A stretch of DNA of 63,869 bases, counting the filler, from Licmophora abbreviata (lineage: Eukaryota): NCBI GenBank assembly GCA_900291995.1. It is 10 parts of 10 records of this genome, joined end to end, with 100 filler letters (N's around TTAATTAATTAA, not from the genome) between each part and the next. Parts side by side here need not be neighbours in the genome. Positions count along the whole stretch, not along the records: positions 11,523 to 19,009 come from OLMU01001967.1; 9 more parts are not named here. The stretch is one strand, 5' to 3'. The notes under the pieces were generated by a model. The model did not search any database and was not told where the DNA came from. It saw only the letters and a list, made by a program, of their open reading frames with translations. This document shows, piece by piece, positions 6,701-45,670 of this stretch. Positions within the stretch are counted from its first letter, which is position 1, and each line of letters begins with the position of its first letter. Position numbers and translations under genes: made by a program.

Positions 6701-9700
6701 ATGGGGATAGACGAAGGAACAAATATCTGTTGGCTGAGCAAGTCTGTGTCACTTGTCAGATTATATCTTCCATCAGTGCACTCGAAAGCTTTCAACCTGA
6801 GGGAGCTCAAGAAATAATCGAACTCTTCCGGCTTCTCACGCAAACGAGCAACAGGCTCATTGATTCTTCAGATGGTGCGTCAAGGGATCTGATTGTGGCA
6901 ACGGCTCATTTGGCCGCCGCAGTGTCGCTAGCGGCTCCCAGATCTCAGGAAAGGGGCTGTGGCCAACACCCAGGGTATGAGCAACTGCATGCTCGAGCAC
7001 TTTGTTTGAATGAGAAGGCGCAGCAACTCTTAAAAGGAATGGATGACGACAAGATAAAACCGCTGGCTATGGCTGTTCTAGTCTCGGCGAAGATACAGTC
7101 CTATCAGATCAAGCAGGTCTCACGAGAATCCGACCTGGCATCGATTTTCTCATCTTGTCATGTTGCTGTCAAGGCTCTGAACGAACTTAACGATTTTGTA
7201 GGTACTTCCGTCAACGCATCAACAGCTGCATGTTTAGTGGGTGCGTTGACGATCCTGCGAAATCAATTGAGCTCCTCTGGTGATGCTCTGCACTCCGCCC
7301 AAGCAGCCCTGATAATGCTTCAGGTTGTACAAACGAGAGGAAGTCGCAGCGACAATCGTTACCGATCTATGGCAGCGAGTGATCTATGGAGTGGCAGACT
7401 TCAGCTCTTGGCGAAAGAAGTCGTGGGCGACACGTTGGACACTCGACCTGTCATCCGGAAGGCTGCTCTTCAGAAAAGCATCAATGAGCTCCTCTTACTT
7501 GAGCTGCGGGCTACACAGCTCCTTCTCGACATGCAAGTTTGCACCGGTAGCAGTGTCAGACAGAGCATGTTGGAAGTAAGGAACATTGAGCAATGTTGCG
7601 TTGAGTCTTCTTGCGGGGATATCACCGATCTGCTCCTACAATGGGTGAGAGCAACGTGTGCGTTGGCTCTTGCGCAGGGATCCAAACGAGTCGAATCGCT
7701 ATTTTCCGCTCAAAATTACGTTCGACAGTGTCTTTGTATATGTCGTGATGCGATAGCGGAGCTACAACCAAGGAGGGGCCCAACCCTCGGGGACTGTGAT
7801 GAGGGTTTTACCACCGCGCTGGCTTCGACGCTCGAGGAGCAATTTTCTGCCAGGGTTCTGGAATGCCTCAGAGCACGATCGCTTCTCTTTGCGGCCATGG
7901 GGAGGCACCGCAATGCAGATGCGCACGCTCTGGCTATGCTGGAAGGGCAGATGGGCACAGAACGACTCTGTTCAAGATGGGGCTCGAAGAAATCTCGTCG
8001 GCTCTCAATAGCATTGACTTTCTGGACCCGAAACAAGCCGCCTCGTTCCGAATGATCTTGTCGCTCAAAACAATGGCTTCTTCGATGGAAACGGTGAGCG
8101 TGGCTCTCTCACCAGATCAATCTCTCTTCCGGTTCCTCACTGATACAAATCGCGATGAGAAGGCTCTTACAGGGAAAATGGAGTCAATTTGGAATCTACT
8201 GATAGGTAAGAAAATTTCAAAACGTTTTTGTGGGGAGCCTACCTGAAAGATTGTCAGGCTTGTTCTAACGTGTATGCACTTTGAATACATAGTTTGCGAT
8301 AGCCTCTATCAGCCATTTGCTCGAAGCAACCTGATGTCGGCTGATATCTGCAAGAAACTAATTTGCAGGGTCGCAACCGTGCTGTCGTCGCCAAGAGCAA
8401 GCGACTACCTTGCTTCTGTTTCGGCCGGGCTCGAACGAAGGGTAGAGGGCTTTCTCGACTTCGAAAATCACGCAACGCTCCGAGAGCTGAAACTTCTTGT
8501 CGCCCAGTTTATGCCTGAATATGCTGACACCCTTACTAGTCGATGCACATCGGTCGTCGAGTCACAGCGAGCGCCCATCCAGTGTCGGGCATGGGCCTAT
8601 TTCTATCTTGCACTCCTCGAAATATCTTCAGCAAGAAACACGGGTTCACTCCAACGTCTATGGGCGAGTTGTTCGAGTATCTATGAGCAACCGGACGTTG
8701 ACCAGAAAGAATCAGCAAGTTCCGCCTCTCGAGACGAGCGCTCTGATCCACTAGGGGCGGCCAAATTCTATCTACGCGAGGCCCTTATCTTGGCAGGACC
8801 AGCCTCGTGCATGCTCTCGCGAGATATTCTGAGATGCCTTGCACTGGTTTCTGGGCCCATCCACGAACGCCAAGCCATTGGTGTCTCAACTGCGGCATTG
8901 ATGCACACGTCAATCGGATCTACGGCACGGCAAGTTAAATGCCACAATCATGCAGTCGGTGATCACAAGAGCTCGTTCCAGGAACGCTCCTGGATATTCG
9001 ATGCCTTGGATACTACGTTCGACGCCATGGACAAACGAAACAAGTCGGTCCAGAGACTATTTTCAGAGACGAATCTGCGTATTCCGCTTGACTGGCGTTT
9101 AATCTCGATGACCCTTTGCCCAACTGGTGATATCCTCATAAATTCTCTTGAGAGAAGTGACAAGGTCGACTCTGTTTCGTCGATTGAGTCAAGAACCGTC
9201 TGCATATTTGCTGGAGATAGGTCTGACGGTCTACTGCAGTCGGGATTGTATGACAACATCTTGAATCCACTAGACAAAATCATACAAAGAAACGAATCAC
9301 ATCTCAGTGGACTCGACAAGGACACGATTGCAGGTCAGTTCAATGATTCATCGTCGAAGCGAGACTGGTGGGACGAGAGACACCGGATAGACAGAGCGCT
9401 GCAGAGCCATGTACAACTCGTCGAAGGGGAATTTTTCAAAGCGCAAAGTGTCAAGCAGCTTTTCGCATGCGGCGATTCGCAGTGTGAACATGAAGAATCC
9501 TGGCTCAAGGTATCGCGTGGCAATCTGGCGTCAAAGTTCGAAGAAGTCTACTCGGCGAATGATTCTCCAGCGAAAGACACTGAGAGCACGTCTGATCGAT
9601 TGTTTGACGCTAACGACGCCCGAAGACTCACGGTAGACGAGATTAGAAAAGAGCTGATCGGCTTGGGTATCGATCAAAAACGTTCCTTTAAGATGAAAAA

Positions 9701-10701
9701 GAAGGATCTGATCGAGCTGCTTGTTGATGAGAGCAGGAAGCGTCACGTGGCTTCGACGGGTGGGTCTCCAACAGCTGAGTCAGGTCGACCTGGCGCAGGT
9801 GCATCCCCAATCACAATCCTCATTCTCGACGAGCATCTCAACCGTTTTCCTTGGGAGGGCATGGAGATCTTCAAGGGCAGAGCTGTCTGCAGAGTTCCGT
9901 CGCTACCTTTCGCCTTCGGCCCCCCTTCTCGACAACGATGCTGGCTCTCCACCGTATGTAGACCCAAGAAGCGCGAGATACGTGGTGGATCCGGAAGGAA
10001 ATTTAGGGAAGACGAAGGATCGTCTTGTTCCCGTTGCAGAGGACATTTCCACGGGGAATCAATGGGACTGGGAAGGCGTTGTTGGAGCAATGCCTTCTCC
10101 CGATTTCATGGAAGGAGCCCTGAAGAAGGAAAACGGCTTACTTTTATACTGTGGACACGGGGGCGGACAATCGTGCTTCTCTCGCTCCAAGGTAGAGACG
10201 CTAATGCGGGGCGAGCAAGGCTGTCGAGCCAGTCTCATTCTGATGGGATGTAGCTCGGGAAAACTCGAATCCGTGAACCGAAAAGATTCTAATTTTATTG
10301 GAAGGACTCCCATCTACTACGAGCCAGAGGGTATCGCACTCTCGTATCTATGCGCCGGGTCGCCCTGCGTAGTCGGAAATCTCTGGGATGTGACAGATCG
10401 TGACATCGACAGGTACGTCGACGGAACAGACGTCATCACTTACCCGGCGCCATCATCGGTCACTAACGTTTCCTGGTCGACTTCGCGTGCCCTCTGCTTA
10501 CCTGGCAGGTACTGTGTGACGCTTCTGGAGACATTCCTTGGCGATGACGTTGGCAACAGATCTCTTGCCCAGTGCGTTGCTGATGCTCGCTCATCTTGCG
10601 TAATGAGTCATATTGTCGGTCTGGCGCCCGTTTGCTATGGTGTGCCGGTGCACTTGCTGCCATCTAGCAAAGATCGAGTCAAAGCTAGCACTGCTACATA
10701 G
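3791..10701 (+). CDS. ESP1: Separase (peptidase C50), multi-exon, with two apparent frameshifts (~7950, ~9920)
   Basis: C-terminal motifs WWDERHRID, LILDEHLNRFPWEG, RVPSL, YVVDPEGNL, LLYCGHGGG (catalytic His), LMGCSSG (catalytic Cys), VVGNLWDVTDRDID. Long helical N-terminus. Introns near 5936-6027, 6067-6144, 8206-8291, 10413-10508. Confidence 0.93.
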
Positions 10702-11422: not shown

Positions 11423-11522
11423 NNNNNNNNNNNNNNNNNNNNNNNNNNNNNNNNNNNNNNNNNNNNTTAATTAATTAANNNNNNNNNNNNNNNNNNNNNN
11501 NNNNNNNNNNNNNNNNNNNNNN
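11423..11522. other. Artificial contig linker N44-TTAATTAATTAA-N44; identical linkers at 19010-19109, 21999-22098, 38019-38118, 45571-45670, 50059-50158, 58178-58277, 60273-60372, 62415-62514
   Basis: Exactly 100 nt each with a six-frame stop cassette in the centre. Confidence 0.98.
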
Positions 11523-11888
11523 AATATATAAGATTAATGTCTATATGTACCTATTTCATTTTGTCAATATACGTATGCGATGAATACATTGCAAGGTACA
11601 TTGAACATGTTCAAATGTGCCCCAAGCTCGCTGGAGTTGTTTTTCATCTTATCGTGACGTTTCTTTGACAGTTCGTAGAAGGATGGAGTTAGGAATCTTT
11701 GGAGGCGTCGTCTCAGATCTCATGACGACATCGTTCTTTCTCAGCCGTCCAAATTGGAACTCCGGACACACCATGACGATACCGTACCTTGATCGGCGCT
11801 GCTCATTTTATCATATCGATCTTGCAGTGCGGATTTGACTATTCAGTTGTTGGCGTGTATCAAAATTTAATCAATCCACACAATTGTC

Positions 11889-12352
11889 ATGAAGCTGGTC
11901 AAGTTCTTGCAGAAGCTGAATAGAGAGCAAGTGGCGATAGAGCTGAAAAATGGAACCGTTGTACAGGGGACAGTTGTCGGCGTTGACGCTACAATGAATT
12001 GCCATCTCAAGAAAGCCAAAGTGACAGTGTAAGTAATTGAAATATGCTGGTGGGGATGGGTGACTGATACTCTGTGTATCTCTGCTGCTACGGTGCTGGT
12101 TGTGATCTGTCTCGTGCGGTATCTCAACTCTGGTTGTCGTTTCGCTTTTTTTTTGTCAGTCGAGGGAAGAATCCAGTTTCCTATGCCACATTGAGCGTCC
12201 GTGGGTCAACGATGCGGGCCTGGATATTGCCGGAATCACTCAACTTGGATGCACTATTGGTAGATGATACTCCTAAGCAGACAGTAGTGAAACCCGTCCA
12301 GCCGGCTGGGGGTCGCGGAAGAGGGCGCGGGAGAGGCAGGGGTAGAAGATGA
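11889..12352 (+). CDS. SMD1: Small nuclear ribonucleoprotein Sm D1, 2 exons (intron 12029-12159)
   Basis: [41 protein letters not shown]|...[26 protein letters not shown], ending in a GR-repeat tail. Confidence 0.95.
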
Positions 12353-12598
12353 GCGCAAAGTTCGGAAGGATTCGTTCCATTGTGGCGACCGTAGTAATTG
12401 CTTTTTTGTTCGGATTCAGACAGATGCTGAAAACCTGTCAGTGCTCGCGACGCACTGCAGCTACGCTACGATTTATTCACGTCGTATGGACATTTGAACT
12501 AGCTATGAGCGGCTCTATTTTATGTGAACACGTCGTGTCTGGTAGGGCAATTCCGTAGTATTCATGTCTAAGAAGTCATTCGTTCTCGGAAACCACTT

Positions 12599-15500
12599 TC
12601 AAGAAGAGTGCAAATGATTCTTTGGTTCTGATTCTTCCTTACTTCCACGTTGTCTGGTCAAAACCGCGGTAAAGGAACGGTTCGTGAGGCGGGCTGCGGC
12701 AACCACCACAAAGACTAAGGTTGTCGCGATCCAACTTAAGTACCACTGACTCTCTGTAATCAGCACAATCACACTCAAAATCCACAGAACAATCTGCATG
12801 GGTGTACCTATGATGAGGAAATCTTTGTACTGTTAAAACATGAAAGGGGGCTGTGAGATCAACGGGACTCCAAAATTCCGTGCAGTTTATTGTTCCCCCT
12901 TCTTACCTTGTATCCTCCTGGACCGTAGATCATCAAGTTGGTCGTGTACCCAAAGGGTGACATAAAACTTGCTGACGCACCAAGCATGACGCAGTAGCTC
13001 ATCAAGGTCACGTCTGTCCCCGTCTTCTCGGCAGCATCAATGGCGATGGGGAATATCAGCGCCGCAGCAGCGTTGTTCGTGACGACGTTGCTGATGAGAA
13101 AAGTAGCCAAATAGACAGCACCGAACAGCCCAGCGTCTATGTTGAATCCAAGAGAAGGTGATAGTGTGGGTCAGAGTTTCCATGCTGGACACGGGATTTC
13201 TCCGCACGTCCATGGACTTACCTCCGATTCCCAGAGCTTCCCCGACATCCGTAAGGAATTGCGCAATGGCATCTGCGATTCCAGAGTTGGTTAGCGCCGT
13301 ACCAATTCCAAAAGCGCACGCAATGGTGACGAAGATTTCCCAGTTCACCGCTTGACGAGCCTCCTGTTCTGACATGACTCCAAGTACTACCATGAGGATT
13401 GCTGCGACGAGACCGCAAACCAGAAGAGAAGCAACTCCGGCCGTAAATGCAATCAACATTGCCGCCGCAATGATCAGAGCAGGAATGAGGTACCGGAGCC
13501 GGGGAGGGGCAGAGTCTTCAACTTCAGCAAGTAGAGCAAAGGAGCGATCGTGATCTCCAGTTCTTTGGATGAACGTAGGGCCAGCTTCGAGAAGGAGAAC
13601 GTCACCACCTTGGAGCTTGATTCGTCCAGGATGATCGTGAATCCGCTGACCTTCTCGATGTACCGCGATGACGGCGGCGCCATAGCGCGTTCGGAAATGA
13701 GCTTCTTTTACAGTCTTGCCCGCAAGAGGCCCTTTTCTGGCAACCACAGCCTGGACGAGCCGTCGATCGTATACTTTATCTTCAATCTTATCAACTTCTT
13801 CACTCTGATAGGACTTCAATCCCGGAATCTTACGCAGGTCTCCAACAGCTGAAGCAGAACCAGCAAACCAAAGCACGTCACCGTCTTTCAGGGGGTCTTC
13901 AGGATCGATGGCTACGAAGGTCGGTTCTGTCGTCTGTAGAGTCCCATCGACGCTGCCGGCAGCACTCGCTGATATATCGGACGGAGAGAGAATCTGCACC
14001 CTGGTCTTACGTTCGCCGTCCGGGCGTTCCACCGGTCTCTCAATGCTCACGAGGAATACCCCTGGAAGCTTCCTTATTCCCGCCTGTCCCGCAGTTTTGT
14101 TTGCGAACTGAGAGTTGGGCGCAACTTCCATGGCAGTAAGAAACTCTCTCGCCCCCACATCTCTAGATGCTGACTGCGTCTCGTCTGGAAAAGCTACTCT
14201 GAGGTCTTTCCACACTGCTTCCATGGCTTCCACGTCGACGAGGGCTGTATCATCCTATGATTCAAAGACGGGAGTATATGAGATAAGAACTAAACCATAG
14301 AGCTTGCATTTGCAACGATTACGTACCACATGGTCAAGTGCCTCGTCGCTTTCGAGAGACCGGGCCTCGACATCATCGTCGTTTTCGTCGTCCGATCCCC
14401 CAATGAAGAATCCATTTTCCATATCATCCTCAGTGCTTCGGGAAGTTCGGGGCACTTCTTCTGATTCTGTGTAGTCATCGAGTTTAGTGTCTGAGACTGA
14501 AAAGCGTTTGGTCACCATCTTCACGAGAGATGAAACTGAGCTAGTTCGAGAGGGTATTTCCGATGCGGCGGACTCCGCTTGTTTGCGATAAAAGTCTTCT
14601 GGTGGACGCGTGAGTAAGGGCGAACCTTCCCCCGCTTGTAGAACAAGGACATCGCCTGCCTCAAAGCGAACTTGAGACAGGGCAGTCACTGTGTTGTTTC
14701 CTCCCCTCTGGACTGCAACGATTGCTGCTTTGTATGTTTCGCGGAAATCCACTTCACCTGCAGTGCTACCAATCAGACGTGACGATTTCGTGACAACAGC
14801 CCGAATGACTTTAAGTCCTCTCGTCTTCACGGCCTGAATTCCACTGTCGTTCTCGAACAGAGCATTCAGAACAGACCAAACCTCCTCCTCATCTAGCAGG
14901 TCGCCATCCAAGCACTCGCAGCGCCAGATTGAAACCGACCTTTCATCGACCACCGCAGCCTCAGTGTGCCGCAACTGGAGATTAAGACGGAGCAAGCCTT
15001 TCGATATATCCAGCAAGAGACCAGGGCGATCGCGGGTATTGACACCCACGAGGACCAGGTGCTGCTTGTTAAGGTGCTCAGTGGTGACTACAATTTTGGG
15101 TGGGTCAGATCCATGTAGCCCCATAGACTGCTGTCGATCCGTCGTTGTGTCGCCTGTAGTATCACGGATCACGTCTTCAAGGAGTTCAAGCGGAAAGCCT
15201 GTCAGTCTGGTACACGAGAACGAAACGAGGGTGTACCTTTCGACTCACCTGTCAATCGATTTATGATTCGCAAACGCTCCGCCTGATCTGCCTGCACCAG
15301 AGATTCCTTGGTGATTCCGACTTCGCATGGTACGTCATTGACGTCTTCGCACTCGTTCTCCGCCACGCTCGCCAGTGGTCCCGTACTCGCTACAAGTTGC
15401 GGTACAGAAGGAGTATCTGCCGTGTCATCCGCGAATTGAACTGTCCTATCTGTCGTACCCTCCTCCGCCTCGTCACTGTGATCTTCCTCATTTTCCGGGA

Positions 15501-16646
15501 CCGTGGGAGGCGTGCCACTTATCGTATCTTCTACTTCATTCGTCACAACTTCTAAACCATGTTCTTCGCAAAACTCGCCAAAGCCCTCCACCAGCCCGGT
15601 GAAGTATAAAACGTCGCCAACATTCAAGACAAAGTCTTGTCCAACAGCCCGATGGACGTTTCCCGTTGCAGCACGATGGACGCTCACTAAAAAGAGACCT
15701 CCTGTGTCTCGAAGTCCACTTCGTTTGACGGATCGTCCAGCCGCGGGCGACCATTGCGTGAGCCTTGCTCCAAGCAGAAGCTCGTCCCCATCCAGGGGAA
15801 TGACACCATCCTTGTCAGAGGAGCGTCGCTTGCCTCCTGGCAACAAGAATGGAGATGCCACAAGAATATATGCGACTCCCGCAATAGCAATAGGCACTCC
15901 AAACTTTCCCAGATCGAATAACCCAATACTGACAGCATCATCGTCTGGAAAGCGGTCGTCCAAGAGACCGACTACGACCAGATTGGTGGACGTGCCAATC
16001 AAGGTACAAGTGCCACCGAGAATACTGGCAAAACTGAGCGGGATCAAGAGTTGCTGTGCATTCTTGCGAGTGCTCCGAGCCCATTTTTGGACAATCGGGA
16101 TCATGACAGCGACGACTGGGGTGTTGTTCAGGAAAGCCGAAACAGCGGCAATGGGGACCATGAGCCGAAGTTGCGCGCCTGCTGTAGTCGCAGGCGATCC
16201 CAAGAGCTTGCCCATGTACCAATCGAGTGCTCCAGTAACAGAGATACCTTCCGCGACAACAAACAGAATCTATGCAAGCAGACCAAGTATGAGGGAAAAC
16301 ATGAGAAAACTTCGAACAGTACACTCATTCGAAACAGATCGTGCACATGACATACCATGACCGTCAGAAGACCTTCATTACTAAATCCTTCGAGTCCTTC
16401 AGACACACTGATGATTCCCGAAGCCATACAAAGCGTCAGAGCTGTTAGCATGACAGCATCCGCACCGACACGATCCGATAGCAGTGCGATGAACATGTAG
16501 AGAAGGACAAAGCACATGTAGACGACCTCCCATGTCTCGGTTTTTTCTGTGTCCTCCAAGCGACGAGGCATCTGGACGGGACACGGGCACATGAGGTCCT
16601 CTTCATTGTGAAAGGGACGATGCCATACAGATTCCTCGCCTCTCAT
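12599..16646 (-). CDS. SLC13-family anion transporter with TrkA-C (RCK_C) domains, SLT/SAC1-like Na+/sulfate symporter, about 6 exons
   Basis: GFSNEGLLTV, SAFLNNTPVVA, PLSFASILGGTCTLIGTSTNLVV, repeated TrkA-C units (LFLVSVHR, AAIVAVQR, GAAVIAVHR), VVTNNAAAALIFPIA, ASASFMSPFGYTTNLMIYGPGGY. Confidence 0.92.
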
Positions 16647-17006
16647 GGTTTAGTAAAGATAAGACAGCGTAGACAGCTGAAAACCGTTCAAACTTCAAGA
16701 CCTCTCTCGACTTCGCCTGAATTCTCCGTTTTTCGCCGTCAAGAAGCCCTTTTTCTCTCTTTCTTTCGCTTTTCTGATTAACTTGCCTATTTACTGTGGC
16801 ACTTGACGACGTGCTTTAGCTTCTCAAGTGCTTTGAGTAGTCAGGAGAGGGCTCTGTTCGTTGCTGCGTTGAGGTGATGTCGAGAAAATGCAAAATGCTG
16901 TCCGTTCAAAATGCGCGCTCATCATCACAAAAAAGGAAACGCAACGTTCGTTCAATGAAGCGCGCAGGAAGGCACGCAAAGACCGCGCGACAAGCGGGAA
17001 TGGATG

Positions 17007-17090
17007 GAGTCACGAGTCTCCAGTGACTTGGGGTCACGACTCAGTCAGTTGAGTCACGAGTCACCACCAAGTCAAGTTTGGTCCGAGTCG
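17007..17090. promoter_or_regulatory. Cluster of GAGTC/TGAGTCA motifs in the divergent promoter of the SLC13 transporter and menin genes
   Basis: Six GAGTC/GACTC in 84 bp, including TGAGTCA at 17050. Confidence 0.35.
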
Positions 17091-17264
17091 AGCTTGAAAG
17101 ATGCAAAGATTCGGATGGTCCTTGTTGACCCGTTGGTTCTATTCAGAGCCTTCAATCGCTACCACTCCGGCAGTTGCGTCCACTAGACTTTCTCTACTGG
17201 TACGTAGCTTGGGTGCCGAGAAAAGCCGGGAATCACTGCGACATCAGTCGAGAGTCACTTCATA

Positions 17265-18983
17265 ATGGCGCGCACGACATGCGTCTATGACGACCCGTCG
17301 TTGGCGTCGACCGAGTCGAAGCACTGGCGCTCCCTCGATCATCAGCCAGGAGACGAGGTCATCCGTAGTCTCGAGGAATTGGTAGAACAGTTCCGTACGC
17401 TTGTTCTGAAATACCATCAGCAAGAAGCTGGCGACAACCAGGCCAACGGACGCACTGTCGCCCTTTGGAGCTGTATCTTCGGTTTCTGTGAATCTTTGGC
17501 GACATCCAAGAAGCCTGAAAGACGTTTCAGAATCTTCCCCATTCCCATTGGTGCCCTTCTGAGGCTTGTCCAAGATGAGTTCTGTTCTTGCCTCGACAGT
17601 CTCGCGGTGGAACGTGGAGACACGCCCCATCGACAGGCCGTGCGATCCGTGTCGAATTGGGTTTGGGCGAATGTGGCATCAAAGTCCAATGTCAAAGATG
17701 AGCTTCATGCCAACAGTCTATATGTTTGTCTTCGCGGTAAACAAGTTGATCAAAAAAGCCTGGATTGTTTTGGAGCTGCTCTGTGTACGGTGATTGGAAT
17801 GCAATGCTTGGGCTATGGATCGATGCTTGCTCTCAGTGAAGACCATGCTTATGAGCTGCACATGTCTGATCACGGAGATGATTACGCAACATGCGAAGTG
17901 GCTGTTCCTGGAAACACCCAATTGACAAAGAGCAAGCGTGGACGTGAAATACATGAGACCTTCCGGGACAAGCCAAAACTATCCGCTGCCACGAGTTGGT
18001 TGTACATGTGGCACTCTCAAGTGCAGTGTCAGTCTGTTCATGAGCTTCTTGCCGCTGCACTCGCCAACATGAACTGTGTCGTTGAAGCAACGAAGAAAGT
18101 ACAACTTTACAGTGGACCTCTGTTCGATTTAAAGCGCAGCCTTCTGTGGATTATGTATCAGGAACACGGTATAACTGATTTTCCATATGCTTTGATGGAG
18201 CTAGGCGACTGCGAAGAGCACCGTCCGTCCGAACAAGGGCAAACCTGGGTTCAGCCAGCCGAGCTTGGAGGGACACCGTGCCTCAAAATGGAAGCGCTTT
18301 ACCACGAAGCTGTCGATATTTCACGAGAGCGCTTTAAGGATGGACAGGTGTACCCATACTGCTACATGGGAAACTATCACAAGGATGCTGGTCAGGAAGA
18401 GGAGTACAGACTTGTTGAAGCACTTCGGTGCTACGCACAGGCTAGTCGCGTGGCTAGCGGCTACTTATATGACTGGAGTGACTCGTTACAGCTTACAAAA
18501 GTCATGGTGAAACTTTCCGAGGTGATTCGAGGGGAAATTTTGACAGATGAGAATGCCGGGAAGCAATGGAAAGACGAAGCGTGTCAAATCGCAGCGGGCA
18601 CGTGGCTCGTTGCTTTCTTTGACTCCTTACTACTATGGGAAGAGCGTACAGAAATTTCGTTCCTTCCTATTCTTACTCCTACCCACAGAACAGGTATTAG
18701 CAAGCTTGTTGAGCTCCTCCCTCACTCTGTGCGTCTAAGTATCGTGGCCAGAATGGCCGCTTCAAGTGACGAGAACGACGCTTCGATCATTCGCGGTAAA
18801 CCCATCACGAGCGCCGCTGACTTGTGCTTTTTCACGAGGCCCCGAAGTCGTCGATTGTTTCGAGCTGGATTATTAGTAGGCGCTATGAAGCGAAGTAAGT
18901 GTTCTATTGGGGACATGGAGCTCGCCATGGTAGTGGAGTCTGATGATGGCTGTGGTCGAACCAAGCGAAGTCGGAGGCGTTAA
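17265..18983 (+). CDS. MEN1: Menin homolog, 572 aa, intronless
   Basis: Colinear menin blocks: VSNWVW, KDELHANSLY, LDCFGAA, LALSEDHAY, SWLYM, LLWIMY, FPYALMELGDCEE, LYHEAV, VYPYCYMGNYH, EALRCYAQA...YLY, FFDSLLLWEE...PIL, and a basic C-terminal NLS-like tail. Confidence 0.88.
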   Translation: MARTTCVYDDPSLASTESKHWRSLDHQPGDEVIRSLEELVEQFRTLVLKYHQQEAGDNQANGRTVALWSCIFGFCESLATSKKPERRFRIFPIPIGALLRLVQDEFCSCLDSLAVERGDTPHRQAVRSVSNWVWANVASKSNVKDELHANSLYVCLRGKQVDQKSLDCFGAALCTVIGMQCLGYGSMLALSEDHAYELHMSDHGDDYATCEVAVPGNTQLTKSKRGREIHETFRDKPKLSAATSWLYMWHSQVQCQSVHELLAAALANMNCVVEATKKVQLYSGPLFDLKRSLLWIMYQEHGITDFPYALMELGDCEEHRPSEQGQTWVQPAELGGTPCLKMEALYHEAVDISRERFKDGQVYPYCYMGNYHKDAGQEEEYRLVEALRCYAQASRVASGYLYDWSDSLQLTKVMVKLSEVIRGEILTDENAGKQWKDEACQIAAGTWLVAFFDSLLLWEERTEISFLPILTPTHRTGISKLVELLPHSVRLSIVARMAASSDENDASIIRGKPITSAADLCFFTRPRSRRLFRAGLLVGAMKRSKCSIGDMELAMVVESDDGCGRTKRSRRR

Positions 18984-19443
18984 CACGCATTGCAGTAGTA
19001 ACGAGTCTTNNNNNNNNNNNNNNNNNNNNNNNNNNNNNNNNNNNNNNNNNNNNTTAATTAATTAANNNNNNNNNNNNNNNNNNNNNNNNNNNNNNNNNNN
19101 NNNNNNNNNGTACACTGCCTGGTACCAGGTACACTAGCTAGGTACCACCAGCACAAGGCCTACACAAAGAGACCTCTTTCTGTTTGACGAGTACTTTTAG
19201 ACGACCAGGTGCCGGTAAATCGGTAATGCCTTTCTAGGAACCCTGTCGGCATCATGCTTGCTAGTCTACCGGTGGCAGAGGTATTGACTCTGAGAATGTT
19301 CCACGTACTGGTAGACTACGAGTAGCTCTATTGTAATGATTGTTTAACAGTTAAGATCGGGTGTGTCAGTCATCGTGTCGACACTTCGAGCTCTGGGAGC
19401 GGGAAAACGTGTACAGGCAAAACTCAAAATTCAAAATTCGAAA

Positions 19444-21378
19444 ATGCCGCGATCGGTCATTCTCGTCAGACCCACACACAGCCATTGTAAACTGCGGGGA
19501 ATGATGAGGCGGCATTATGGCATGTTATCGTCGCGAGCTGCGGCGCAGCGCCGTGTAGCACCCGTTCGGAGGTCTATGATCGGCACTCCCCGGGCTCAGC
19601 GTCGTTACTCGCTGTCTTGTATGGCATTTTTCGGATCGATCATTTTTCTCTCGGCTCTGCTACTGATGACGCTGCATTGGGTCGCTCAAAGTATCGCTTC
19701 TGGGAATACTACCAGAGCTAGTAGCAGTGACCCCTTGCCATTGTTAAAGGAGTCAGTATCAATGGAACACTCTACTGGATTGAAGTCCATCGACGCTTTG
19801 CGAAACGAGTTTTACCATCGCTACGGTGGTAAGGAACAAGCAGAGACATTTCTTGACAAGTCGATTCAGCTCTACGGTGACTTGGACGTGACTGCAGGCC
19901 GACTGCTACGAGCCAAGGTACACCACAATGCGACGTTTACAGTGGCCTTTGGAGGATACTCGGTCACGGTTGGGCGCGGGAACCACTTCCACCAGTCCTT
20001 TCCGTTCGTCACAGAGCGCTTGTTGCGAGGGCCACTCAAAGATACCTTGGGTATCGACTTGGTAGTTCGGAATGCCGCCATTGGAGGTATTCCTAGCTTC
20101 CCGTATGGATTCTGCATGCCACATTTCCTTGGAGTCGACGCCGATGTCATTAGCTGGGATTATGGTATGAACGAAGGCGGGGGAGCAAGTATTCTAGAGA
20201 GTTATGTCAGACATGGCCTTTCGCAGCTTCCGAAGCGTCCCATGCTCATCATGATGGACACAAACGCCGCTCGATCAAAACTTCTTCAGGACTACCACGA
20301 CCAGAATCTGTTACCCGATGTCATTCGCGTCGCCAAAGGAAAGGAAGTTATTGACAAGTCAATGCTAGACATGTCTGACGAGAAAAAGCCGGAAGGACTG
20401 AGAGAGTGGGATGAATTTGGGGCTCCCAAATCATGTCCGGGACGAAGTAGCTGGCATCCGAAGAAGCAAGAACATGAGTTCATCGGCTGGATGCTGGCAA
20501 TGCACCTGCTCAAAGCTGTCGAACGTGCTCATGAAATTATCCAAGAAGACGAGTCGTGGGAGGCGCATCACGCTATGGAGCTTCCTCTCCTGCCGTTTCC
20601 CCCTCTGCTTAGCAAAGACCCTCCATCTAATCCCAAGGAAGCTATGGAGCTACTATACGGTCATGAGGATGGACGAATGGGGGATATTTCGTGTCGCACA
20701 TCTTTCTTACCAGCTGTAGATCACGACAAGGCGCTTCCGTCTGTCGTCGTTTCGGGGATGGCAGAGGCAGCCAAGTCGTTGGATATAATGGAAGAGCGAA
20801 GCGATGAACTATATCAACAAGGCTGGGTCTCGGATGTCAGCAAGGTCGAGCGTGATACCAAGAAGAAGGTAGAACGGTGCGGTGGGCTGGGCTATATTGA
20901 CATGAAGGTCGCTCTGTACGGAATTCCTGAGAGCGGGGAGTTGCAGCTATGGCTCCCATTCGAGGGCACAGCACCTCCGGATACTGGGATAGACGATGCG
21001 CGGCAATGGTTTGATGATTTGATAGTGTGCGAAGCCAATGAGAAGCGAAAAGACGAAGCTTGTCAGCTGGACTCAGATGTCACATACGTGGTCGGAGGCA
21101 TAGAAGTGCCATCCACGAGAATCACGCACATTGATGGCGCTGGTGTCTATTTGAATCGTAAGACATGCGTACACGTCGGTGTCCCCGAGGGTGCAAAGAT
21201 TTCAAGATTGGGTGAGTTGCCGGGAGATCCATTCACTCTGGAAGAAAAACGGCAGCTAGCCGGTTGGAACGCAAGCGATCAGGACGTGGGTCTTCTGGTC
21301 TATTTCACCGCACAATCACGTGTGTCTCGAGCAAATGGAGCATGCTGCATCTCTCACATAATATGGGAACAGCCGTAA
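19444..21378 (+). CDS. Type II membrane SGNH-hydrolase-fold protein (paralog 1)
   Basis: N-terminal TM; FGGYSVTVGRGN (block I), NAAIGG (II), WDYGMNE (III), SSWHP (V). Start may instead be 19501. Confidence 0.75.
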   Translation: MPRSVILVRPTHSHCKLRGMMRRHYGMLSSRAAAQRRVAPVRRSMIGTPRAQRRYSLSCMAFFGSIIFLSALLLMTLHWVAQSIASGNTTRASSSDPLPLLKESVSMEHSTGLKSIDALRNEFYHRYGGKEQAETFLDKSIQLYGDLDVTAGRLLRAKVHHNATFTVAFGGYSVTVGRGNHFHQSFPFVTERLLRGPLKDTLGIDLVVRNAAIGGIPSFPYGFCMPHFLGVDADVISWDYGMNEGGGASILESYVRHGLSQLPKRPMLIMMDTNAARSKLLQDYHDQNLLPDVIRVAKGKEVIDKSMLDMSDEKKPEGLREWDEFGAPKSCPGRSSWHPKKQEHEFIGWMLAMHLLKAVERAHEIIQEDESWEAHHAMELPLLPFPPLLSKDPPSNPKEAMELLYGHEDGRMGDISCRTSFLPAVDHDKALPSVVVSGMAEAAKSLDIMEERSDELYQQGWVSDVSKVERDTKKKVERCGGLGYIDMKVALYGIPESGELQLWLPFEGTAPPDTGIDDARQWFDDLIVCEANEKRKDEACQLDSDVTYVVGGIEVPSTRITHIDGAGVYLNRKTCVHVGVPEGAKISRLGELPGDPFTLEEKRQLAGWNASDQDVGLLVYFTAQSRVSRANGACCISHIIWEQP

Positions 21379-21989: not shown

Positions 21990-22639
21990 TGTAATAAGNN
22001 NNNNNNNNNNNNNNNNNNNNNNNNNNNNNNNNNNNNNNNNNNTTAATTAATTAANNNNNNNNNNNNNNNNNNNNNNNNNNNNNNNNNNNNNNNNNNNNAT
22101 ATGCTATCTTATATACTCAGTACGAGTAAAGGAGCGAAAGATCTTTTACTTGAGGCTGAGTGTGTGTACCGTAATAGAGGCTGTGTGCCGAGCATGTGGG
22201 TGAAACTCAGCAGGACGCGTCTGCGTTCGAACATAAAGAGGTGTGTGATCACGCAGGACCCGATTCGATTCATTCCTCTCTTGGCGAAATACCCCCTACC
22301 ACGGTATTCAAGCTCCAGTACTGGCACAGTACCATGGAGCCGGATTAGACCTATTGAATTTGCATGTCGTCCTTCGTGCCTGATAGCGTCTTTGCTTGTA
22401 TTGTCTAGCTAGGCTTGCACCGTTTCCGCTTTCTTCTCGAATCTCTGGCTGGTAGCCGAGGCTGACATCTTCTCGCCTCCGGTATATTTTATGAGGTTCC
22501 ATGCAACCGAGTGCCCACCATTGCAACGCAACCAGCTTTTGGGCTTTGTTGTTTACCTGGTTGACTTCTCGCTCGTGGACTTTTGGGATACATTGTTGTT
22601 TAACTGGTTGGCCCCTCGTGGTCTTGGCATACGGTACAA

Positions 22640-22963: not shown

Positions 22964-23191
22964 CCCCTTGGGTCTTGTCTGTATAAAAAGCAAGTCCAAT
23001 CCGTTGAGTGTGAGTACAAGAGGCTGTACGGGTGAAAGTTTCAAGTTGCCAAGTAACTAGTGTCTGTGTTCGGTCGATACTAGCTCGACGACTAATCCAT
23101 TGTCGATGTGAATGTCTTCTCGCTGCTCGCATACGAAAGTCTAGTCTACTCTACTCTACTCTGCCACAGCCGGTTTCTAGTCTACCCCACC

Positions 23192-25949
23192 ATGAACCCC
23201 CTAAATGGAAATACTCGCCGTCATCAAGAAAATATAAACATGGACGGTACAGAAAGTAGTCCGGATAGTGGCAGCAGCGATGATTTTTTCTTCCCCCACA
23301 AGGCTCTCCGCGGGGATGGCTACGGCGGGGGAGGATACCGTTCGCTCCATGCCAAAAAGACCGAACAGATTCAATCGCACAACTACGAACCCGACGAATC
23401 TGAAGTCTGGCGTGCCTATGTAGCACAGCTGCATTTTTCCAATCGCGGGCAGTGGTGGACCACGTCCAAGAAGCGTGCTCTCAAACGTTGGATTTTGACA
23501 TTTTCCATTGGAGTCATTCAGGCCCTTGTGGCATTGGCGTGTAATTTCTCCTCCAAGGCGTTGAGTCGACACAAGTTTGACACGATGTATGCACTCTTGG
23601 AAGCGAATCACGAGAGTAGCAGCGCGAGCGAAGCACAGGACACAACGGGCGATGATTTGTACTTGACCGGAAATGAAGCAGATGGCTCGGAAGAGGTGGG
23701 AGTGTCTCAGTCGTCTCTCTTTGGCGGGTCTGCCTTCTTGGCCTATATATTCTATCAGACATTATTTGCCGTGATAGCTGCCATATTTGTTTGGTTCGAG
23801 CCGGTCGCAGGAGGGTCCGGTATTCCAGAAATCAAGTGCTTTCTCAACGGAATTGATTTGCCGCGAGTGGTCCGTGTCAAGACTCTCTTATGCAAAGTTA
23901 TCGGTGTCACGTTCAGTGTGGCAGCCGGTCTACCTGTTGGAAAAGAAGGCCCTATGGTACACTCTGGTGCCGTCGTGGCGGCGGGGATCTCTCAGGGCAA
24001 AACCAAATTCTGGGGAGTCGATACTTCCTTTAGCAAGTTTTCGGACTTTCGGAATGATCGCGAGAAGCGAGACTTCGTCGCGTGCGGAGCGGCAGCTGGT
24101 GTCACGTCCGCATTCGGCGCTCCCATTGGAGGCGTCTTGTTTTCTCTGGAGGAGGGAGCCTCTTATTGGAGCACCAAGCTCACGTGGCGTGCGTTTTTCT
24201 GTGCCATGGTGACGCTTGGAACACTCTTCACTCTACGAAATTTGGACACGTGGTGGGGACAAGCGAACATTGACAAGCTCTTTTCCTTTGGCGAGTTCAA
24301 CAGTTTGACGTAAGTACACGATCTCCTCCCTTTTCTTTCCAGCGTATGGCGGGAAGCCTCGTGTCCTTCTGACGCTTCCTTGTCGTCATCTCTTTGTTGC
24401 GCAGTGGAGACGCCTCAAATTTCTCGATTTGGGAGCTCACCATCTTCATGCTCATTGGGTGCATTGGAGGACTGATTGGTGCTGTTTTCAATGCAGCAAA
24501 CGAGCACATTACTCTGTGGCGGATGAGGCGTGTCAACATTTCGAAGTCCCGACGCTTCATGGAAGTTATTGTCGTGAGTCTCGGCGTGTCTCTTGTTTCA
24601 TTTCTGATGCCACTTTTGTGGAACCGTTGTACGGAGTTGCCGACGAACATGCAGGATTGGTCAAACCAGCAAAAGAATCTGGTGGAAGCGCTCGTGCCTT
24701 TTCAGTGTGCCCCAGGCAAGGAGTACAACGAAGTGGCAAGTTTGATTCTCACAGATGCTGATACGGCCATCAAACAACTCTTCCACTTTCGAGAGGCCGG
24801 CGCTGACGACAACAGCACCTTTTCATCGGCTGCGCTCTTTCTCTTTTTCCTACCCTATATTGCCATGGCAACCATCGTGTACGGTATAGCTGTCCCGAGT
24901 GGACTTTTTGTTCCCTCTCTTTTGTCGGGGGCTGCATTCGGTCGTCTTTGTGGACATCTCTTGCACAAGCTGGATCACACGAGTGGAACCTTTGCTGATA
25001 GCGGTACATATGCATTGATGGGTGCTGCGGCCGTCTTGGGGGGCATGGCTCGTATGACGATCTCATTGACAGTTATCTTGCTGGAGGCGACTGGCGACAT
25101 GCAGTACGTGCTGCCGCTGATGTTGACACTCATGGCGGCTCGCTTCACCGGAAACATTTTCAACGAGGGGCTGTATGATATTCATATTCAGCTCAAGAAC
25201 ATCCCCTTCATGGAGGCTGATGTCCCGAGTATCGCTGAACGACACGAGATTGTCGCTGGTCAAGTTATGAGTACGGAAGTGAAGTGTCTGCGGCCAGTGG
25301 AACGAGCGGGCGTGGTGTACGATTTGCTTCGAAGCAGCTCTCATGGGACATTCCCGATCGTTGATACTGCCAGCGGCGGTACCCTCTACGGGACAGCAAG
25401 CCGCTCGATGCTCTGTACTTTGCTGCAGAGAAGAGCGTTTGGGCCGGCTGATGCGCTAGAAGACTACGATGGTCCAAACGGAGTAGGCTGTGAGGGACTT
25501 GGGCCACGACGGCTGAGCCCTCTCGTTCAGTGGGATACTATCGAGAGAGCATACCCACGCTATCCAACGATCGATGACGTGGAGATGAGAAACGTCGACC
25601 GGAATTGTTGGTTAGACCTGCGCCCGTATGCGAACACGGCGCCCTATACGGTGAACGAAACGGCTTCAATTCAGGTGAGCATGAATTTATGTTGCCTGCA
25701 TCTTTGGATTCTCAGCTTCGGTATGCCTAATCATTTCTGTTGTCCCTTCTCTAGCGCACTTATCGACTGTTCCGCACTCTCGGCCTTCGTTTTCTTTGTG
25801 TGGTTAACCACAACAACCAGGTCGTCGGTATCATCACAAGAAAGGACTTGCTTCCCGAAGCTCTTTCCGATTCAATCCTTCGGGGTCGAAATGCTCACTT
25901 GAACCCCATGGGTCCGGAGAATGGGTCCAATGTCGGCACGTTTACTTGA
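23192..25949 (+). CDS. CLC-family Cl-/H+ antiporter (CLC-6/7-like) with CBS domains, 3 exons
   Basis: [14 protein letters not shown] (gating Glu), [15 protein letters not shown] (proton Glu), [24 protein letters not shown]; last exon [18 protein letters not shown]...GIITRKDL. Confidence 0.95.
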
Positions 25950-34700: not shown

Positions 34701-35494
34701 TCTTGGAAAATGCCTACACGCAAACCGTAGAAGATGTCATCGACAAGCTCGTGACTGACAGTGGCTCATCTCAACTTTTTGAGTTGGATGTTCCAGCGAC
34801 AAAACCAGAAGGCAACGGCGTGCGGAGGCTTGGAACAGCGGCGCTGGTGGATGGATCCGCCTCGATCGACAGCATTGAAGATATTCCATGCCCTGCAGGT
34901 CTCCCTGACGACGCCTTGTGTCAGTTAGTTGGTGCTTCGTTTACCCTGGACGCAGAAGACGCAAATGCTTCCGCTGTGGAGAACGATGTCCAAGAAAGAC
35001 TGAATGTCGCCATCAAGGACGGCGACTTGCAGGACGTGCTCCCCTCAGGCTCCGGCTTTGAAGTGGTCGGAAACGCAGTACCGTCACAGGCTCCGACGAG
35101 CGCCCCCTCTGCCACTATTTTAGAGCTCAAGAGTGACAGTGGGCTCAGTGGAGGTGCTGTGGCGGGTATCGTCATTGCGGTATTGTTGGTGGTCGCATGC
35201 TGTATGTTTGGTTTCTGCTTCTGGAGGCGAAGACAGAGTGATCCGACTCGGCCACTCAATGCACCTTCAGACGAAGGCCCGTTCATGGCGGACGACTGGC
35301 GGGATGAAAGGCCTTTCATCGAGGATCCTAATGGACCAATCAACTCTGAAGTTCACGTGCACGAAGATTCAGGATGGACAGCCCAGCAAAGTGCCTTCCT
35401 GGTGGAGGAGCCTGACGAGTCTCAGGTGACGGAGGACCGGTGGGACGATGACAGCGCATTCGACACCTCTTCAGACGAGGAATCAGAGGACTGA
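31758..35494 (+). CDS. Large type I membrane surface protein: three Cys-containing beta repeats, mucin-like P/S/T tracts, C-terminal TM; 2 exons
   Basis: Signal exon, intron ~31825-31913, RRL motif; repeats (HDTC/NDIC/NDKC...GST.NA...GVWY...L.VSTC); xxPS/xxPT tetrads; GLSGGAVAGIVIAVLLVVACC-RRR stop-transfer. Confidence 0.85.
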
Positions 35495-37499: not shown

Positions 37500-38575
37500 A
37501 TGGAGTGTCTCGCGGCAACACAGTTCGGAAAGCACTCGCAAGTCTTGGATTTCGATTCCGTCGATGAGCTCCCTAAGTGTGGGAAGAATGATGTAAGTCT
37601 AGTAAGACTCTACCTGGTAGTTCCTGATGATTGTTTCAAAGTGTTCATCTTCATGTCGCGATCGCGCACTAGTCCTCACGAAACCCGAGCCCTGTACCTG
37701 TGCGTGTCCCCTACGTCCCACGAATTGCAGCTTCTGATCAAGGTTGCGTATGCAGAGCTGAATCCAGTGGACCTTCAGAAGCTTCAAGGTGGTCCTCGGG
37801 AGGGACAGGCGACAGGAGGGCCACTTGTTGTCGGCTACGGAGGATCAGGTGTCGTAGAAGACATGGGCGTCGGTGTCGCGAACGATTGGAAGGGGAAGCG
37901 GGTTTCATTTCTCTGTGACCCATCGCGGCCGGGGGCGTACGCGACTCATGTTGTGGTAGGATTCAAGAGCAGTTGCTCCAGTTCCCTTTCTGGTATCGCT
38001 CAAGCAGGCTGCTGCGGTNNNNNNNNNNNNNNNNNNNNNNNNNNNNNNNNNNNNNNNNNNNNTTAATTAATTAANNNNNNNNNNNNNNNNNNNNNNNNNN
38101 NNNNNNNNNNNNNNNNNNGATTCCTCATAATGAAATCGCATTACAACTTCAGGGTGGTCGAAATGGAAGTGTCGATTACATACTGTGCCTTGCGGAACCT
38201 ACGAAAGAGCTCTTTGGGGCGTTGACTGAGGTCATTAGGCCGTATGGGTCTTTGTGCTTGGCCGTTGCCGGCGATTCCATCAAGAGTTTGGATATGGGGT
38301 TTGCGTTTTTCAAGAGTGTCACAGTCACTACAGAGACAGTCTTCAGCAGTATCCGAACGAACTACGGGGTTATTCGGCCCGCGTCAGAGATTGAAGACCT
38401 GCTGGAGCACATTGTGAGCGAAGCTTCCATCAGTGCACCGCTCTCTCCCCAGCTTTCGAGCTTGGCAGGGGCCGAAGACTGGAGGCAAGCTCTGAAAGAG
38501 GGTGGACTCCTAGACCAGCTTGCGAGTGGTCATACAAGAGGGAAACTGGTAATGAGGATAGGGGTGGACGACTAG
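37500..38575 (+). CDS. MDR-family (quinone oxidoreductase / Zn-ADH-like) oxidoreductase, middle lost in gap
   Basis: GroES-like N-part LLIKVAYAELNPVD...GYGGSGVVE...GAYATHVVV before the linker; VDYILCL...IRPYGSLC...GHTRGKLVM after it. Confidence 0.85.
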
Positions 38576-45562: not shown

Positions 45563-45670
45563 AACGTTCANNNNNNNNNNNNNNNNNNNNNNNNNNNNNN
45601 NNNNNNNNNNNNNNTTAATTAATTAANNNNNNNNNNNNNNNNNNNNNNNNNNNNNNNNNNNNNNNNNNNN

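Follow-up and report, generated by a model that had tools for sequence, protein, structure and literature searches.

Positions 17265..18983 (plus strand) of DNA from the diatom Licmophora abbreviata encode a genuine full-length homologue of menin that adopts the menin fold along its whole length. Menin is a tumour suppressor and a major drug target. The window, which is the whole stretch of DNA that was analysed, is 63,869 nucleotides long and consists of ten contigs joined by 100-base linkers of N's and stop codons. The protein represents a menin branch that is found across diatoms and is distinct from the animal clade. We propose, with a probability of about 0.6, that diatom menin is a nuclear adaptor in which a transglutaminase-like (TGL) domain and a helical-repeat domain form a deep pocket that holds a short peptide of a partner protein.

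Gene structure and fold

The gene is a single uninterrupted open reading frame of 572 amino acids, from an ATG start to a basic tail, and it is intronless, as originally predicted. Upstream, the stop-to-stop frame extends by only 19 codons, to position 17208, and the start methionine aligns in register with the starts of at least 90% of 52 homologues. The annotated parts are as follows.

17005..17064, plus strand: three direct copies of a 14-nt motif, a candidate promoter element (repeat search)
17265..18983, plus strand: menin-family coding sequence, 572 codons and stop, no intron (open reading frame, Pfam Menin, model, structural alignment)
17265..17615, plus strand: N-terminal helical domain, residues 1-117 (beyond the Pfam alignment; confidently modelled, clade-conserved)
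17616..18029, plus strand: transglutaminase-like ("thumb") domain, residues 118-255 (secondary structure; Pfam Menin profile positions 109-226; weak TGL fold matches)
17766..17768, plus strand: TGT codon of Cys168, at the catalytic-cysteine position of the papain/TGL fold, first residue of helix 168-181 (conservation, helix start)
17835..17846, plus strand: codons of Ser191-Glu192-Asp193-His194, the pocket-floor motif, with His194 as candidate triad histidine (conservation; human S178-H181 through the opossum ruler)
17895..17897, plus strand: GAA codon of Glu211, candidate acidic triad residue, immediately after strand 207-210 (conservation; triad role suggested by model topology)
18030..18554, plus strand: helical-repeat ("palm") region, residues 256-430, second half of the central pocket (TPR-protein fold matches over about 256-430; pocket mapping)
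18555..18935, plus strand: C-terminal helical region, residues 431-557, equivalent of the "fingers" (within structural alignments to menin)
18954..18980, plus strand: basic C-terminal tail, last nine residues with six K/R, likely a nuclear-localization signal by analogy

The protein scores 130.5 bits with the Pfam Menin profile (PF05053; cutoff 23.6, E 8.9e-38), and its two halves match separately with 57.6 and 62.4 bits. All 23 sequence matches in the PDB are menins; phmmer gives E 6.3e-29 to 3re2_A and approximately 1e-22 to human menin chains. The 3RE2 structure is Nematostella menin, and 3U84 and 4GPQ are structures of human menin. The AF2 model has a pLDDT of 91.9 and a pTM of 0.92. Among the Foldseek matches listed (ranks 1-48), every one is a menin entry, with E about 1e-17, TM scores by target of 0.70-0.82 and 537-574 aligned columns. 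VIA-align superposes model residues 30-557 on 3re2_A with Z 32.8 and an rmsd of 2.8 Å (423 of 435 residues aligned), and the next-best chain scores Z 8.8. Thus, the profile search and the structural superposition bear out the prediction of a full-length menin. The end-to-end colinearity that it described is likewise correct, and is established by the structural comparisons (Foldseek and VIA-align), not by the Pfam alignment, which spans residues 118-469 only.

The N-terminal domain contains helices 36-52, 58-79 and 95-112, with block pLDDT values mostly above 87, and the phmmer alignment to 3re2_A begins within it, at residue 49. In the model of the TGL domain, helix 168-181 is followed by strands 187-190, 195-200 and 207-210. 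Residues 431-557 have pLDDT values of 85-97, except for block 501-510 (63). This fingers region is compact in comparison with animal menins, and lacks the long disordered loop that is implied by the longer animal proteins.

The upstream motif has the consensus T-G/T-G-R-GTCACGA-S-TC, with spacings of 24 and 20 nt between its copies, which are located 200-260 nt 5' of the menin ATG. The GTCACGA 7-mer is not enriched over the whole window (11 found, 10.7 expected). Only the local clustering is notable, and the motif is possibly a promoter element.

Genomic setting

The physical piece that carries menin spans 11523..19009, approximately 7.5 kb, and one linker starts 27 nt 3' of the menin stop codon. 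The same piece carries an SmD1 gene with a 131-nt GT..AG intron and a multi-exon SLT-type transporter gene (CitMHS/TrkA_C). An Atlas search with the transporter exon recovered this family without an informative taxon. The original prediction placed all three genes on one contig, which is accurate for this piece, whereas the window itself is a chain of ten. It also considered contamination improbable, and the intron-bearing neighbours, together with organism-named close relatives that are all diatoms, support that judgement. It is far-fetched that this gene is a decaying relic, or that animal or other foreign DNA was wrongly assembled into a diatom scaffold here: the artificial linkers and the short menin piece would permit it, but the two neighbouring genes, the uniform GC content along the window, the diatom-clade identity of the closest relatives, a frame that is open throughout and the presence of all 46 clade-invariant residues in the window protein (itself among the 38 rows that define them) argue against it.

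Relationship to other menins and origin

Even the best match overall shares no more than 54-56% identity with Licmophora menin, whose lineage is therefore sparsely sampled. All 14 organism-named close matches are from diatoms, and the 16 distant representatives that carry an organism name are from animals without exception; the window protein is only 22-26% identical to animal menins. Three of the orthologues (P0014, P0055 and P0115) come from transcriptome assemblies, in which they are labelled complete transcripts. A tree of 62 rows places 26 diatom-type rows in one clade (SH-aLRT 100) and 30 animal rows in another (SH-aLRT 99), with a long stem of 1.19 substitutions per site. The two groups share 58 positions that are conserved and identical in both, and they are distinguished by 12 clade-specific fixed differences.

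About six long-branch sequences fall between the two clades (P0156, P0210, P0200, P0216, P0183 and P0230). A profile built from these intermediates retrieves five proteins, and P0156 alone retrieves six, none of them organism-named. P0156 and P0210 have most of the diatom-type pocket residues, yet are placed outside the diatom clade.

The separate clades exclude a recent transfer from an animal, and nesting within animals at high identity, part of what the original prediction said would refute it, is not seen. That menin is either older than animals or was transferred stands as the right pair of alternatives, with only the recent form of transfer excluded. Because the tree is unrooted, the direction of descent or transfer is not readable from it.

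An ancient horizontal transfer between the diatom (or wider algal) stem and a holozoan or animal relative is a possible source of diatom menin, although we tend to doubt it; it would replace inheritance from an early eukaryote accompanied by many losses. The patchy distribution among named organisms, 14 diatom and 16 animal rows with only some six long-branch sequences between the groups, is what such an event could leave. The menin family has also been described as "solely eukaryotic" (PMC10318531), and an hhalign comparison of the 52-row menin alignment with a single E. coli YchA sequence (probability 0.2%) gave no sign, at sequence level, of a link with bacterial TGL-TPR proteins. However, the deep, well-supported split of the clades weighs against transfer, and the low identity and 12 fixed differences mean that any transfer must have been very old. 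The intermediates, moreover, show that more lineages have menin, including two whose pockets resemble those of diatoms, and the unrooted tree contributes no direction in favour of transfer.

The central pocket

The list of human menin pocket residues is a presumed one, not derived from coordinates. Human numbering was transferred by using the opossum sequence P0202 as a ruler to about residue 285 and, beyond it, the fish sequence P0184 at an offset of -3; with the fish ruler, seven of ten expected letters match, and the three misses are fish substitutions.

The pocket floor is nearly invariant, with S191, D193 and H194 present in 52 of 52 rows and E192 in 51. Two pocket tyrosines are kept in the diatom clade (Y363 in 36 and Y367 in 32 of 37 rows), and the palm contributes F306, Y308, E312, Y363, Y367, Y390, Q409, V413 and K416. 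Across 38 diatom-clade rows, the 24 mapped pocket positions have a mean conservation of 0.829, compared with 0.556 for the whole protein, a value not attained by any of 10,000 random sets of positions. Among the diatom sequences, the pocket is thus under strong purifying selection. However, residues in the core of a fold are generally conserved, whatever the fold, so the statistic does not specifically prove that a ligand is bound.

The rim differs. At the position of human Y276 (F306 in the window protein), 35 of 37 diatom rows have F, whereas all 10 animals have Y; at that of W341 (Y390), diatoms have Y (29 rows) or F (8 rows), and 8 of 10 animals have W. The three acidic positions diverge similarly: E359 corresponds to Q409 (Q in 35 of 37 diatom rows, E in 9 of 10 animals), E363 to V413 (20 diatom rows have H and 11 have V; 8 of 10 animals have E) and E366 to K416 (diatom rows have K, T or A; 9 of 10 animals have D or E). 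Diatoms also have N at the human A242 position (37 of 37 rows) and E at the N282 position (36 of 37). Thus, the presumed animal-type rim (acidic residues at human 359, 363 and 366, Tyr 276 and Trp 341) is absent from the window protein, which has Q409, V413, K416, F306 and Y390 instead. As judged from the aligned residues, the core of the pocket is conserved, and the acidic rim of animal menins is swapped for other clade-conserved residues. Without this acidic rim, the best-understood interaction of animal menin may not exist in the diatom protein.

Proposed role

In the adaptor model that we favour, the TGL and helical-repeat domains would jointly form the deep central pocket, which would hold a short stretch of peptide from a partner protein. 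The protein would be nuclear, as its basic tail suggests. Just as animal menin tethers KMT2A/B and JunD, it might tether a transcription factor or an enzyme that acts on chromatin. The recognized peptide would probably differ from the animal one, because the acidic rim and two hydrogen-bonding aromatics are replaced by clade-conserved residues.

The basic tail of animal menin has a role in nuclear localization, and by analogy the diatom tail is likely a nuclear-localization signal. The tail emphasized in the original prediction (GRTKRSRRR) is present but is not special to this protein: at least five of the last 12 residues are K or R in 38 of 38 diatom-clade rows and 7 of 10 animal rows, and the window protein has six. 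In P0183, one of the intermediates, the menin body is joined to a PHD finger (34.3 bits, cutoff 24). This fusion links a divergent menin to chromatin, and may be uninformative for diatoms. The premise of the original prediction that menin must act here without canonical MLL partners is an assumption and not a finding. Candidate MLL-type H3K4 methyltransferases are listed for Phaeodactylum and Thalassiosira by Maumus et al. 2011 (PMC3145265).

A candidate catalytic trio

Menin has been placed in the transglutaminase-like/papain-like superfamily (PMC10318531, PMC3495828), and human menin has Ser at the position equivalent to Cys168 (PMC3495828, PMC10318531). In the diatom clade, this position is Cys in 37 of 37 rows, as it is in 4 of 4 intermediates, whereas the 10 animals have C (5), S (4) or P (1). 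Cys168 is among only 46 of 572 positions that are invariant in 38 diatom-clade rows. Glu211 is E in 36 of 37 diatom-clade rows and 10 of 10 animals, and D or E in 4 of 4 intermediates; all 52 rows but one, from the diatom clade, have an acid here. In the model, helix 168-181 starts with C168, H194 immediately precedes strand 195-200, and E211 comes directly after strand 207-210. A pure scaffold would not need an invariant Cys168, which is lost in half of the sampled animals, and this leaves room for catalysis.

Diatom menin is unlikely, on present evidence, to be a thiol enzyme (a peptidase, deamidase or transglutaminase-type enzyme) in which Cys168, His194 and Glu211 act on a peptide held in the pocket, with the vertebrate scaffold as a derived and catalytically dead state. 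Such an enzyme would explain a Cys that is kept throughout the diatom clade and the intermediates but in only half of the animals, an invariant His194 and a nearly always acidic Glu211. The predicted placement of the trio agrees with the triad positions of the papain/TGL fold, although it reflects the secondary-structure topology of the model and not side-chain geometry. The replacement of the Cys by Ser in human menin, already noted (PMC3495828), speaks for this reading. Fold matches to TGL cysteine proteases are weak (TglA Z 7.7, LapG Z 6.6), and Z below 8 is in the range of unrelated matches. In the TGL segment (residues 120-260), hmmscan with E up to 10 found Menin only and no transglutaminase family. 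Animals with Ser or Pro for the Cys have retained the gene, so the conserved role of the menin family does not need the Cys. We know of no menin with demonstrated enzymatic activity.

The enzymatic module raised in the original prediction thus gains some backing from the intact trio, but full catalytic triads in some menin family members had already been remarked in 2023 (PMC10318531), where enzyme activity is treated as speculative. An even less probable extension is that diatom menin preserves an ancestral, catalytically competent state, in which Cys168-His194-Glu211 would cleave or modify a peptide in the pocket, possibly a histone tail or the terminus of a chromatin enzyme. If so, menin would originally have been an enzyme directed at chromatin, and only the lineages that replaced the Cys would have turned it into a pure scaffold.

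Significance

Several diatom orthologues are already labelled Menin automatically in databases. A literature search found no paper on diatom or other non-animal menin; where "Menin" appears beside diatom terms, it is apparently an author surname. Menin is not known from the standard unicellular model organisms, which explains why its ancestral function has stayed obscure. The conserved, compact, intronless diatom gene offers a simple system for asking what menin did before the animal MLL/JunD network, whether its pocket was once an active site and how pocket specificity evolves. Because several diatoms are genetically tractable, these questions are approachable. The gene is also an unstudied candidate component of diatom chromatin regulation.

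Comparison with known systems

Bacterial YchA/SirB1-type proteins have the same two-domain layout, transglutaminase-like plus TPR. In an Atlas feature search, bacterial Transglut_core2/TPR clusters (scores 0.84-0.88) rank next below those of menin, and scores below 0.9 are leads only. TGL/papain-like enzymes (LapG, TglA and PNGase-type) resemble diatom menin in the helix-then-sheet core and in the canonical placement of a Cys, a His and an acidic residue. In contrast to these enzymes, diatom menin has no transglutaminase Pfam match, and its fold matches to them are weak (Z 6.6-7.7).

Diatom "Menin" database entries belong to the same clade, share 38-45% identity across 96-99% of the length and all match PF05053. 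The names are automatic; examples are Seminavis robusta "multiple endocrine neoplasia I" and Nitzschia inconspicua "Menin domain family protein", and UniRef entries named Menin occur for Cylindrotheca closterium and Stephanodiscus triporus.

Animal menin (the MEN1 product) shares with the diatom protein its Pfam family, the whole-length fold, the S-E-D-H pocket floor, two pocket tyrosines and the basic tail. Unlike animal menin, the diatom form lies in a separate clade at 22-26% identity, has its acidic rim replaced and has F and Y/F at the positions of human Y276 and W341. Its pocket-floor motif ends in Tyr, not Trp, in 37 of 37 diatom rows but in none of 10 animals, and the Cys at the catalytic position, variable among animals, is always kept in the diatom clade.

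A complete menin gene in a diatom

17265-18983, plus strand: unbroken menin-family ORF of 572 codons, with an ATG start and a terminal run of basic residues

The protein encoded by this ORF matches the Pfam Menin model (PF05053) over residues 118-469 (hmmscan; E = 8.9e-38), scoring 130.5 bits where the gathering score is 23.6 bits. In a phmmer search of all PDB sequences, every one of the 23 distinct matches is a menin, led by the Nematostella protein 3re2_A (E = 6.3e-29, residues 49-463), after which human menin chains rank at E-values of about 1e-22. The AlphaFold2 model rests on an alignment of 52 sequences and reaches a mean pLDDT of 91.9 and a pTM of 0.92; its confidence is low solely near residues 501-510 and in the final ~17 residues. 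Among the Foldseek matches listed, all are menin entries, with E-values near 1e-17, TM scores by target of 0.70-0.82 and alignments of 537-574 columns. A structure search independent of Foldseek superposes model residues 30-557 on 3re2_A (Z 32.8, rmsd 2.8 A, 423 of 435 residues aligned), and the runner-up chain has a Z of 8.8.

By sequence and predicted structure, the protein is a bona fide menin family member. The original prediction had described a full-length homolog with menin motifs from end to end, and had proposed a Menin profile search and an AlphaFold superposition. Its main observation is confirmed, and its interpretation is borne out in part. The end-to-end likeness is real because the structural match includes N- and C-terminal parts that lie beyond the Pfam alignment. 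The stop-to-stop frame extends 19 codons upstream of the ATG and no further, and the start methionine pairs with residue 1 in at least 90% of the aligned homologues (n = 52). Because the start aligns with those of its homologues, the predicted gene model is complete and intronless.

Genomic setting

The window comprises ten pieces. Each of the nine joins between them is the same 100 bases, in which a 12-base all-frame stop word is flanked by 44 N on either side.

Joins 1-5: 11423-11522, 19010-19109, 21999-22098, 38019-38118, 45571-45670
Joins 6-9: 50059-50158, 58178-58277, 60273-60372, 62415-62514

Because the joins string separate contigs together, adjacency across them is untrustworthy; one begins 27 nucleotides past the menin stop codon. 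The original prediction argued against contamination on the grounds that SmD1 and transporter genes are on the same contig. The window is not a single contig, but these genes share one physical piece with menin (11523-19009), so the argument stands.

11890-12028 and 12160-12352, plus strand: two exons of SmD1 (Sm core protein), with a C-terminal RG-repeat tail
13037-16646, minus strand: SLT/SLC13-type sodium/sulfate or citrate transporter, with CitMHS and several TrkA_C domains
17005-17064, plus strand: three direct copies of a 14-nucleotide GTCACGA-containing motif, with 24- and 20-nucleotide spacing

The SmD1 intron is 131 nucleotides long (GT..AG) and has a pyrimidine tract. The transporter is considered a multi-exon gene because its domains are spread over four ORF pieces in differing frames. 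It is divergent to the menin gene and about 620 nucleotides from the menin start. The motif copies occupy the intergenic region shared by these two genes, 200-260 nucleotides upstream of the menin ATG, and one of the three has a TGAGTCA core; possibly they are a cluster of transcription-factor sites.

GC content is uniform along the window, and ordinary eukaryotic genes are found on other pieces (separase, CLC channel, GrpE, dynamin-like GTPase and sulfotransferase). Two of these loci, each on another contig piece than menin, are as follows.

8274-10253, plus strand: separase-like Peptidase_C50 ORF
23108-25902, plus strand: CLC chloride channel in two adjoining ORFs, probably split by an intron or frame change

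Large ORFs at 31970-35494 (plus strand, 1174 aa) and 19363-21378 (plus strand, 671 aa) have no Pfam match at E-values up to 0.001.

Distribution and phylogeny

A word-indexed search retrieves 217 proteins at E-values up to 0.001, and PF05053 is present in 120 of the 120 listed. Among the matches listed, all organism-named rows are diatoms, both centric and pennate (Thalassiosira profunda, Thalassiosira sp., Stephanodiscus triporus, Skeletonema menzelii, Discostella pseudostelligera, Cyclotella meneghiniana, Cylindrotheca fusiformis, C. closterium, Seminavis robusta, Nitzschia inconspicua, Amphora coffeaeformis and Epithemia clementina). One more match is labelled just by the gene-model prefix CCRYP, and three matches come from transcriptome assemblies, where they bear complete-transcript labels. 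The closest match is 54-56% identical, which implies that the lineage of the Licmophora protein is poorly sampled. Our literature search found no studies of non-animal menin; the orthologues are auto-labelled in databases, several of those from diatoms as "Menin" or "multiple endocrine neoplasia I".

When 1.84 billion cluster representatives are searched exhaustively, 150 proteins match at E-values up to 0.001; tightening the limit to 1e-10 leaves 94, and to 1e-30 leaves 46. Names were looked up for 30 of the 150, and all 16 that are organism-named are animals (flies, crustaceans, a mite, a pseudoscorpion, a nemertean, an acoel, flatworms, an ascidian, fishes, a bird and a marsupial).

The unrooted tree (536 kept columns, IQ-TREE quick setting, site-heterogeneous model) includes the Licmophora protein and the 61 of these 150 representatives with at least 400 residues; 89 shorter ones were left out. 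The 26 diatom-type rows group together as a clade (SH-aLRT 100) on a stem of 1.19 substitutions per site, and within it the homologue P0012 is sister to the Licmophora protein (SH-aLRT 95). The 30 animal rows form a separate clade (SH-aLRT 99), and therefore the diatom gene is not nested in animals. The phylogeny proposed in the original prediction thus places the gene outside the animal clade and, together with an identity of 22-26% to animal menins, excludes both recent transfer from animals and contamination.

Six long-branch homologues (P0210, P0156, P0200, P0216, P0183 and P0230) fall between the clades, at placements flagged as unsafe. P0156 is an orphan whose next-best match is no better than E = 8e-24; this protein and P0210, P0200, P0216 and P0230 suggest that more eukaryotic lineages have menin. 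PMC10318531 terms the family "solely eukaryotic". An Atlas feature search ranks bacterial Transglut_core2/TPR clusters (0.84-0.88) directly below three menin clusters (0.96-0.91), and comparison of the menin profile with a single E. coli YchA sequence gives a probability of 0.2%, a value that lends no support to homology. The unrooted tree fits both ancient vertical descent with many losses and ancient transfer, the latter being less likely than not.

A re-lined central pocket

Human menin residues that we take to line the peptide and drug pocket were mapped by using opossum menin (P0202) as a numbering ruler to about residue 285, and fish menin (P0184, offset -3) beyond. The S-E-D-H pocket floor is kept (S191-H194), with S, D and H invariant in 52 of 52 rows, and both pocket tyrosines are retained (Y363 and Y367). 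Eight mapped positions differ from animals, yet are conserved among diatom-clade rows.

Pocket positions (human menin numbering) in 37 diatom-clade rows, the Licmophora protein excluded, and in 10 animal rows
Y276: diatom clade F 35/37; animals Y 10/10
M278: diatom clade F 35/37 (Y308 in the Licmophora protein); animals M 8/10
A242: diatom clade N 37/37; animals A 5, S 4, G 1
N282: diatom clade E 36/37; animals N 4, T 3, S 2
W341: diatom clade Y 29, F 8; animals W 8/10
E359: diatom clade Q 35/37; animals E 9/10
E363: diatom clade H 20, V 11; animals E 8/10
E366: diatom clade K, T or A; animals D or E 9/10

Conservation within the diatom clade is 0.829 over the 24 mapped pocket positions versus 0.556 over the whole protein, and a mean as high as that of the pocket is not reached by any of 10,000 random sets of positions. 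The intermediates P0156 and P0210 carry most of the diatom-type residues. We interpret the pocket as functional and under selection, but adapted to a ligand that differs from the MLL/JunD motif of animals.

Possible nuclear and chromatin links

The basic C-terminal tail remarked on in the original prediction is present but not special, as at least five of the last 12 residues are K or R in 38 of 38 diatom-clade and 7 of 10 animal rows. As in animal menin, the tail of the Licmophora protein is likely a nuclear-localisation signal. The divergent menin P0183 has a C-terminal PHD finger (PF00628, residues 667-712; 34.3 bits, cutoff 24), and this fusion is independent evidence that menin outside the main animal clade may act on chromatin. 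P0183 also has low-complexity inserts rich in Q, N and S.

A conserved Cys-His-Glu trio

The column of Cys168 is Cys in 37 of 37 diatom-clade rows, 4 of 4 intermediates and 5 of 10 animals, the other animals having Ser (4) or Pro (1); vertebrate menin has Ser. His194 is invariant across the 52 aligned rows, and the Glu211 column is acidic in 51 of 52, the exception being one diatom-clade row. In the model, Cys168 opens helix 168-181, His194 lies directly before strand 195-200, and Glu211 comes after strand 207-210.

Zhang and Aravind 2012 (PMC3495828) remark that Ser replaces the catalytic Cys of the menin transglutaminase-like (TGL) domain, and PMC10318531 mentions a full catalytic triad in some family members. 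Because these remarks are already in print, catalysis in menin is not novel as an idea; what is new here is that the trio is fixed throughout the diatom clade. The gene represents a form of menin shared across diatoms, in which the pocket lining has changed and the Cys-His-Glu trio is intact. We favor a nuclear peptide-binding adaptor, at a probability of roughly 60%.

Comparison with known systems

The main functional rival to an adaptor is an active thiol enzyme. In the model, the placement of Cys168, His194 and Glu211 matches the triad layout of papain- and transglutaminase-like enzymes; fold matches to the TGL proteases TglA (Z 7.7) and LapG (Z 6.6) are within the chance range. We regard such an activity as unlikely. 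As for the adaptor reading, the absence of canonical MLL partners was an assumption of the original prediction, and candidate MLL-type H3K4 methyltransferases of Phaeodactylum and Thalassiosira are inventoried in PMC3145265. In contrast to animal menin, the diatom protein lacks the animal-type contact rim, so an MLL-type partner, if bound, would be bound differently.
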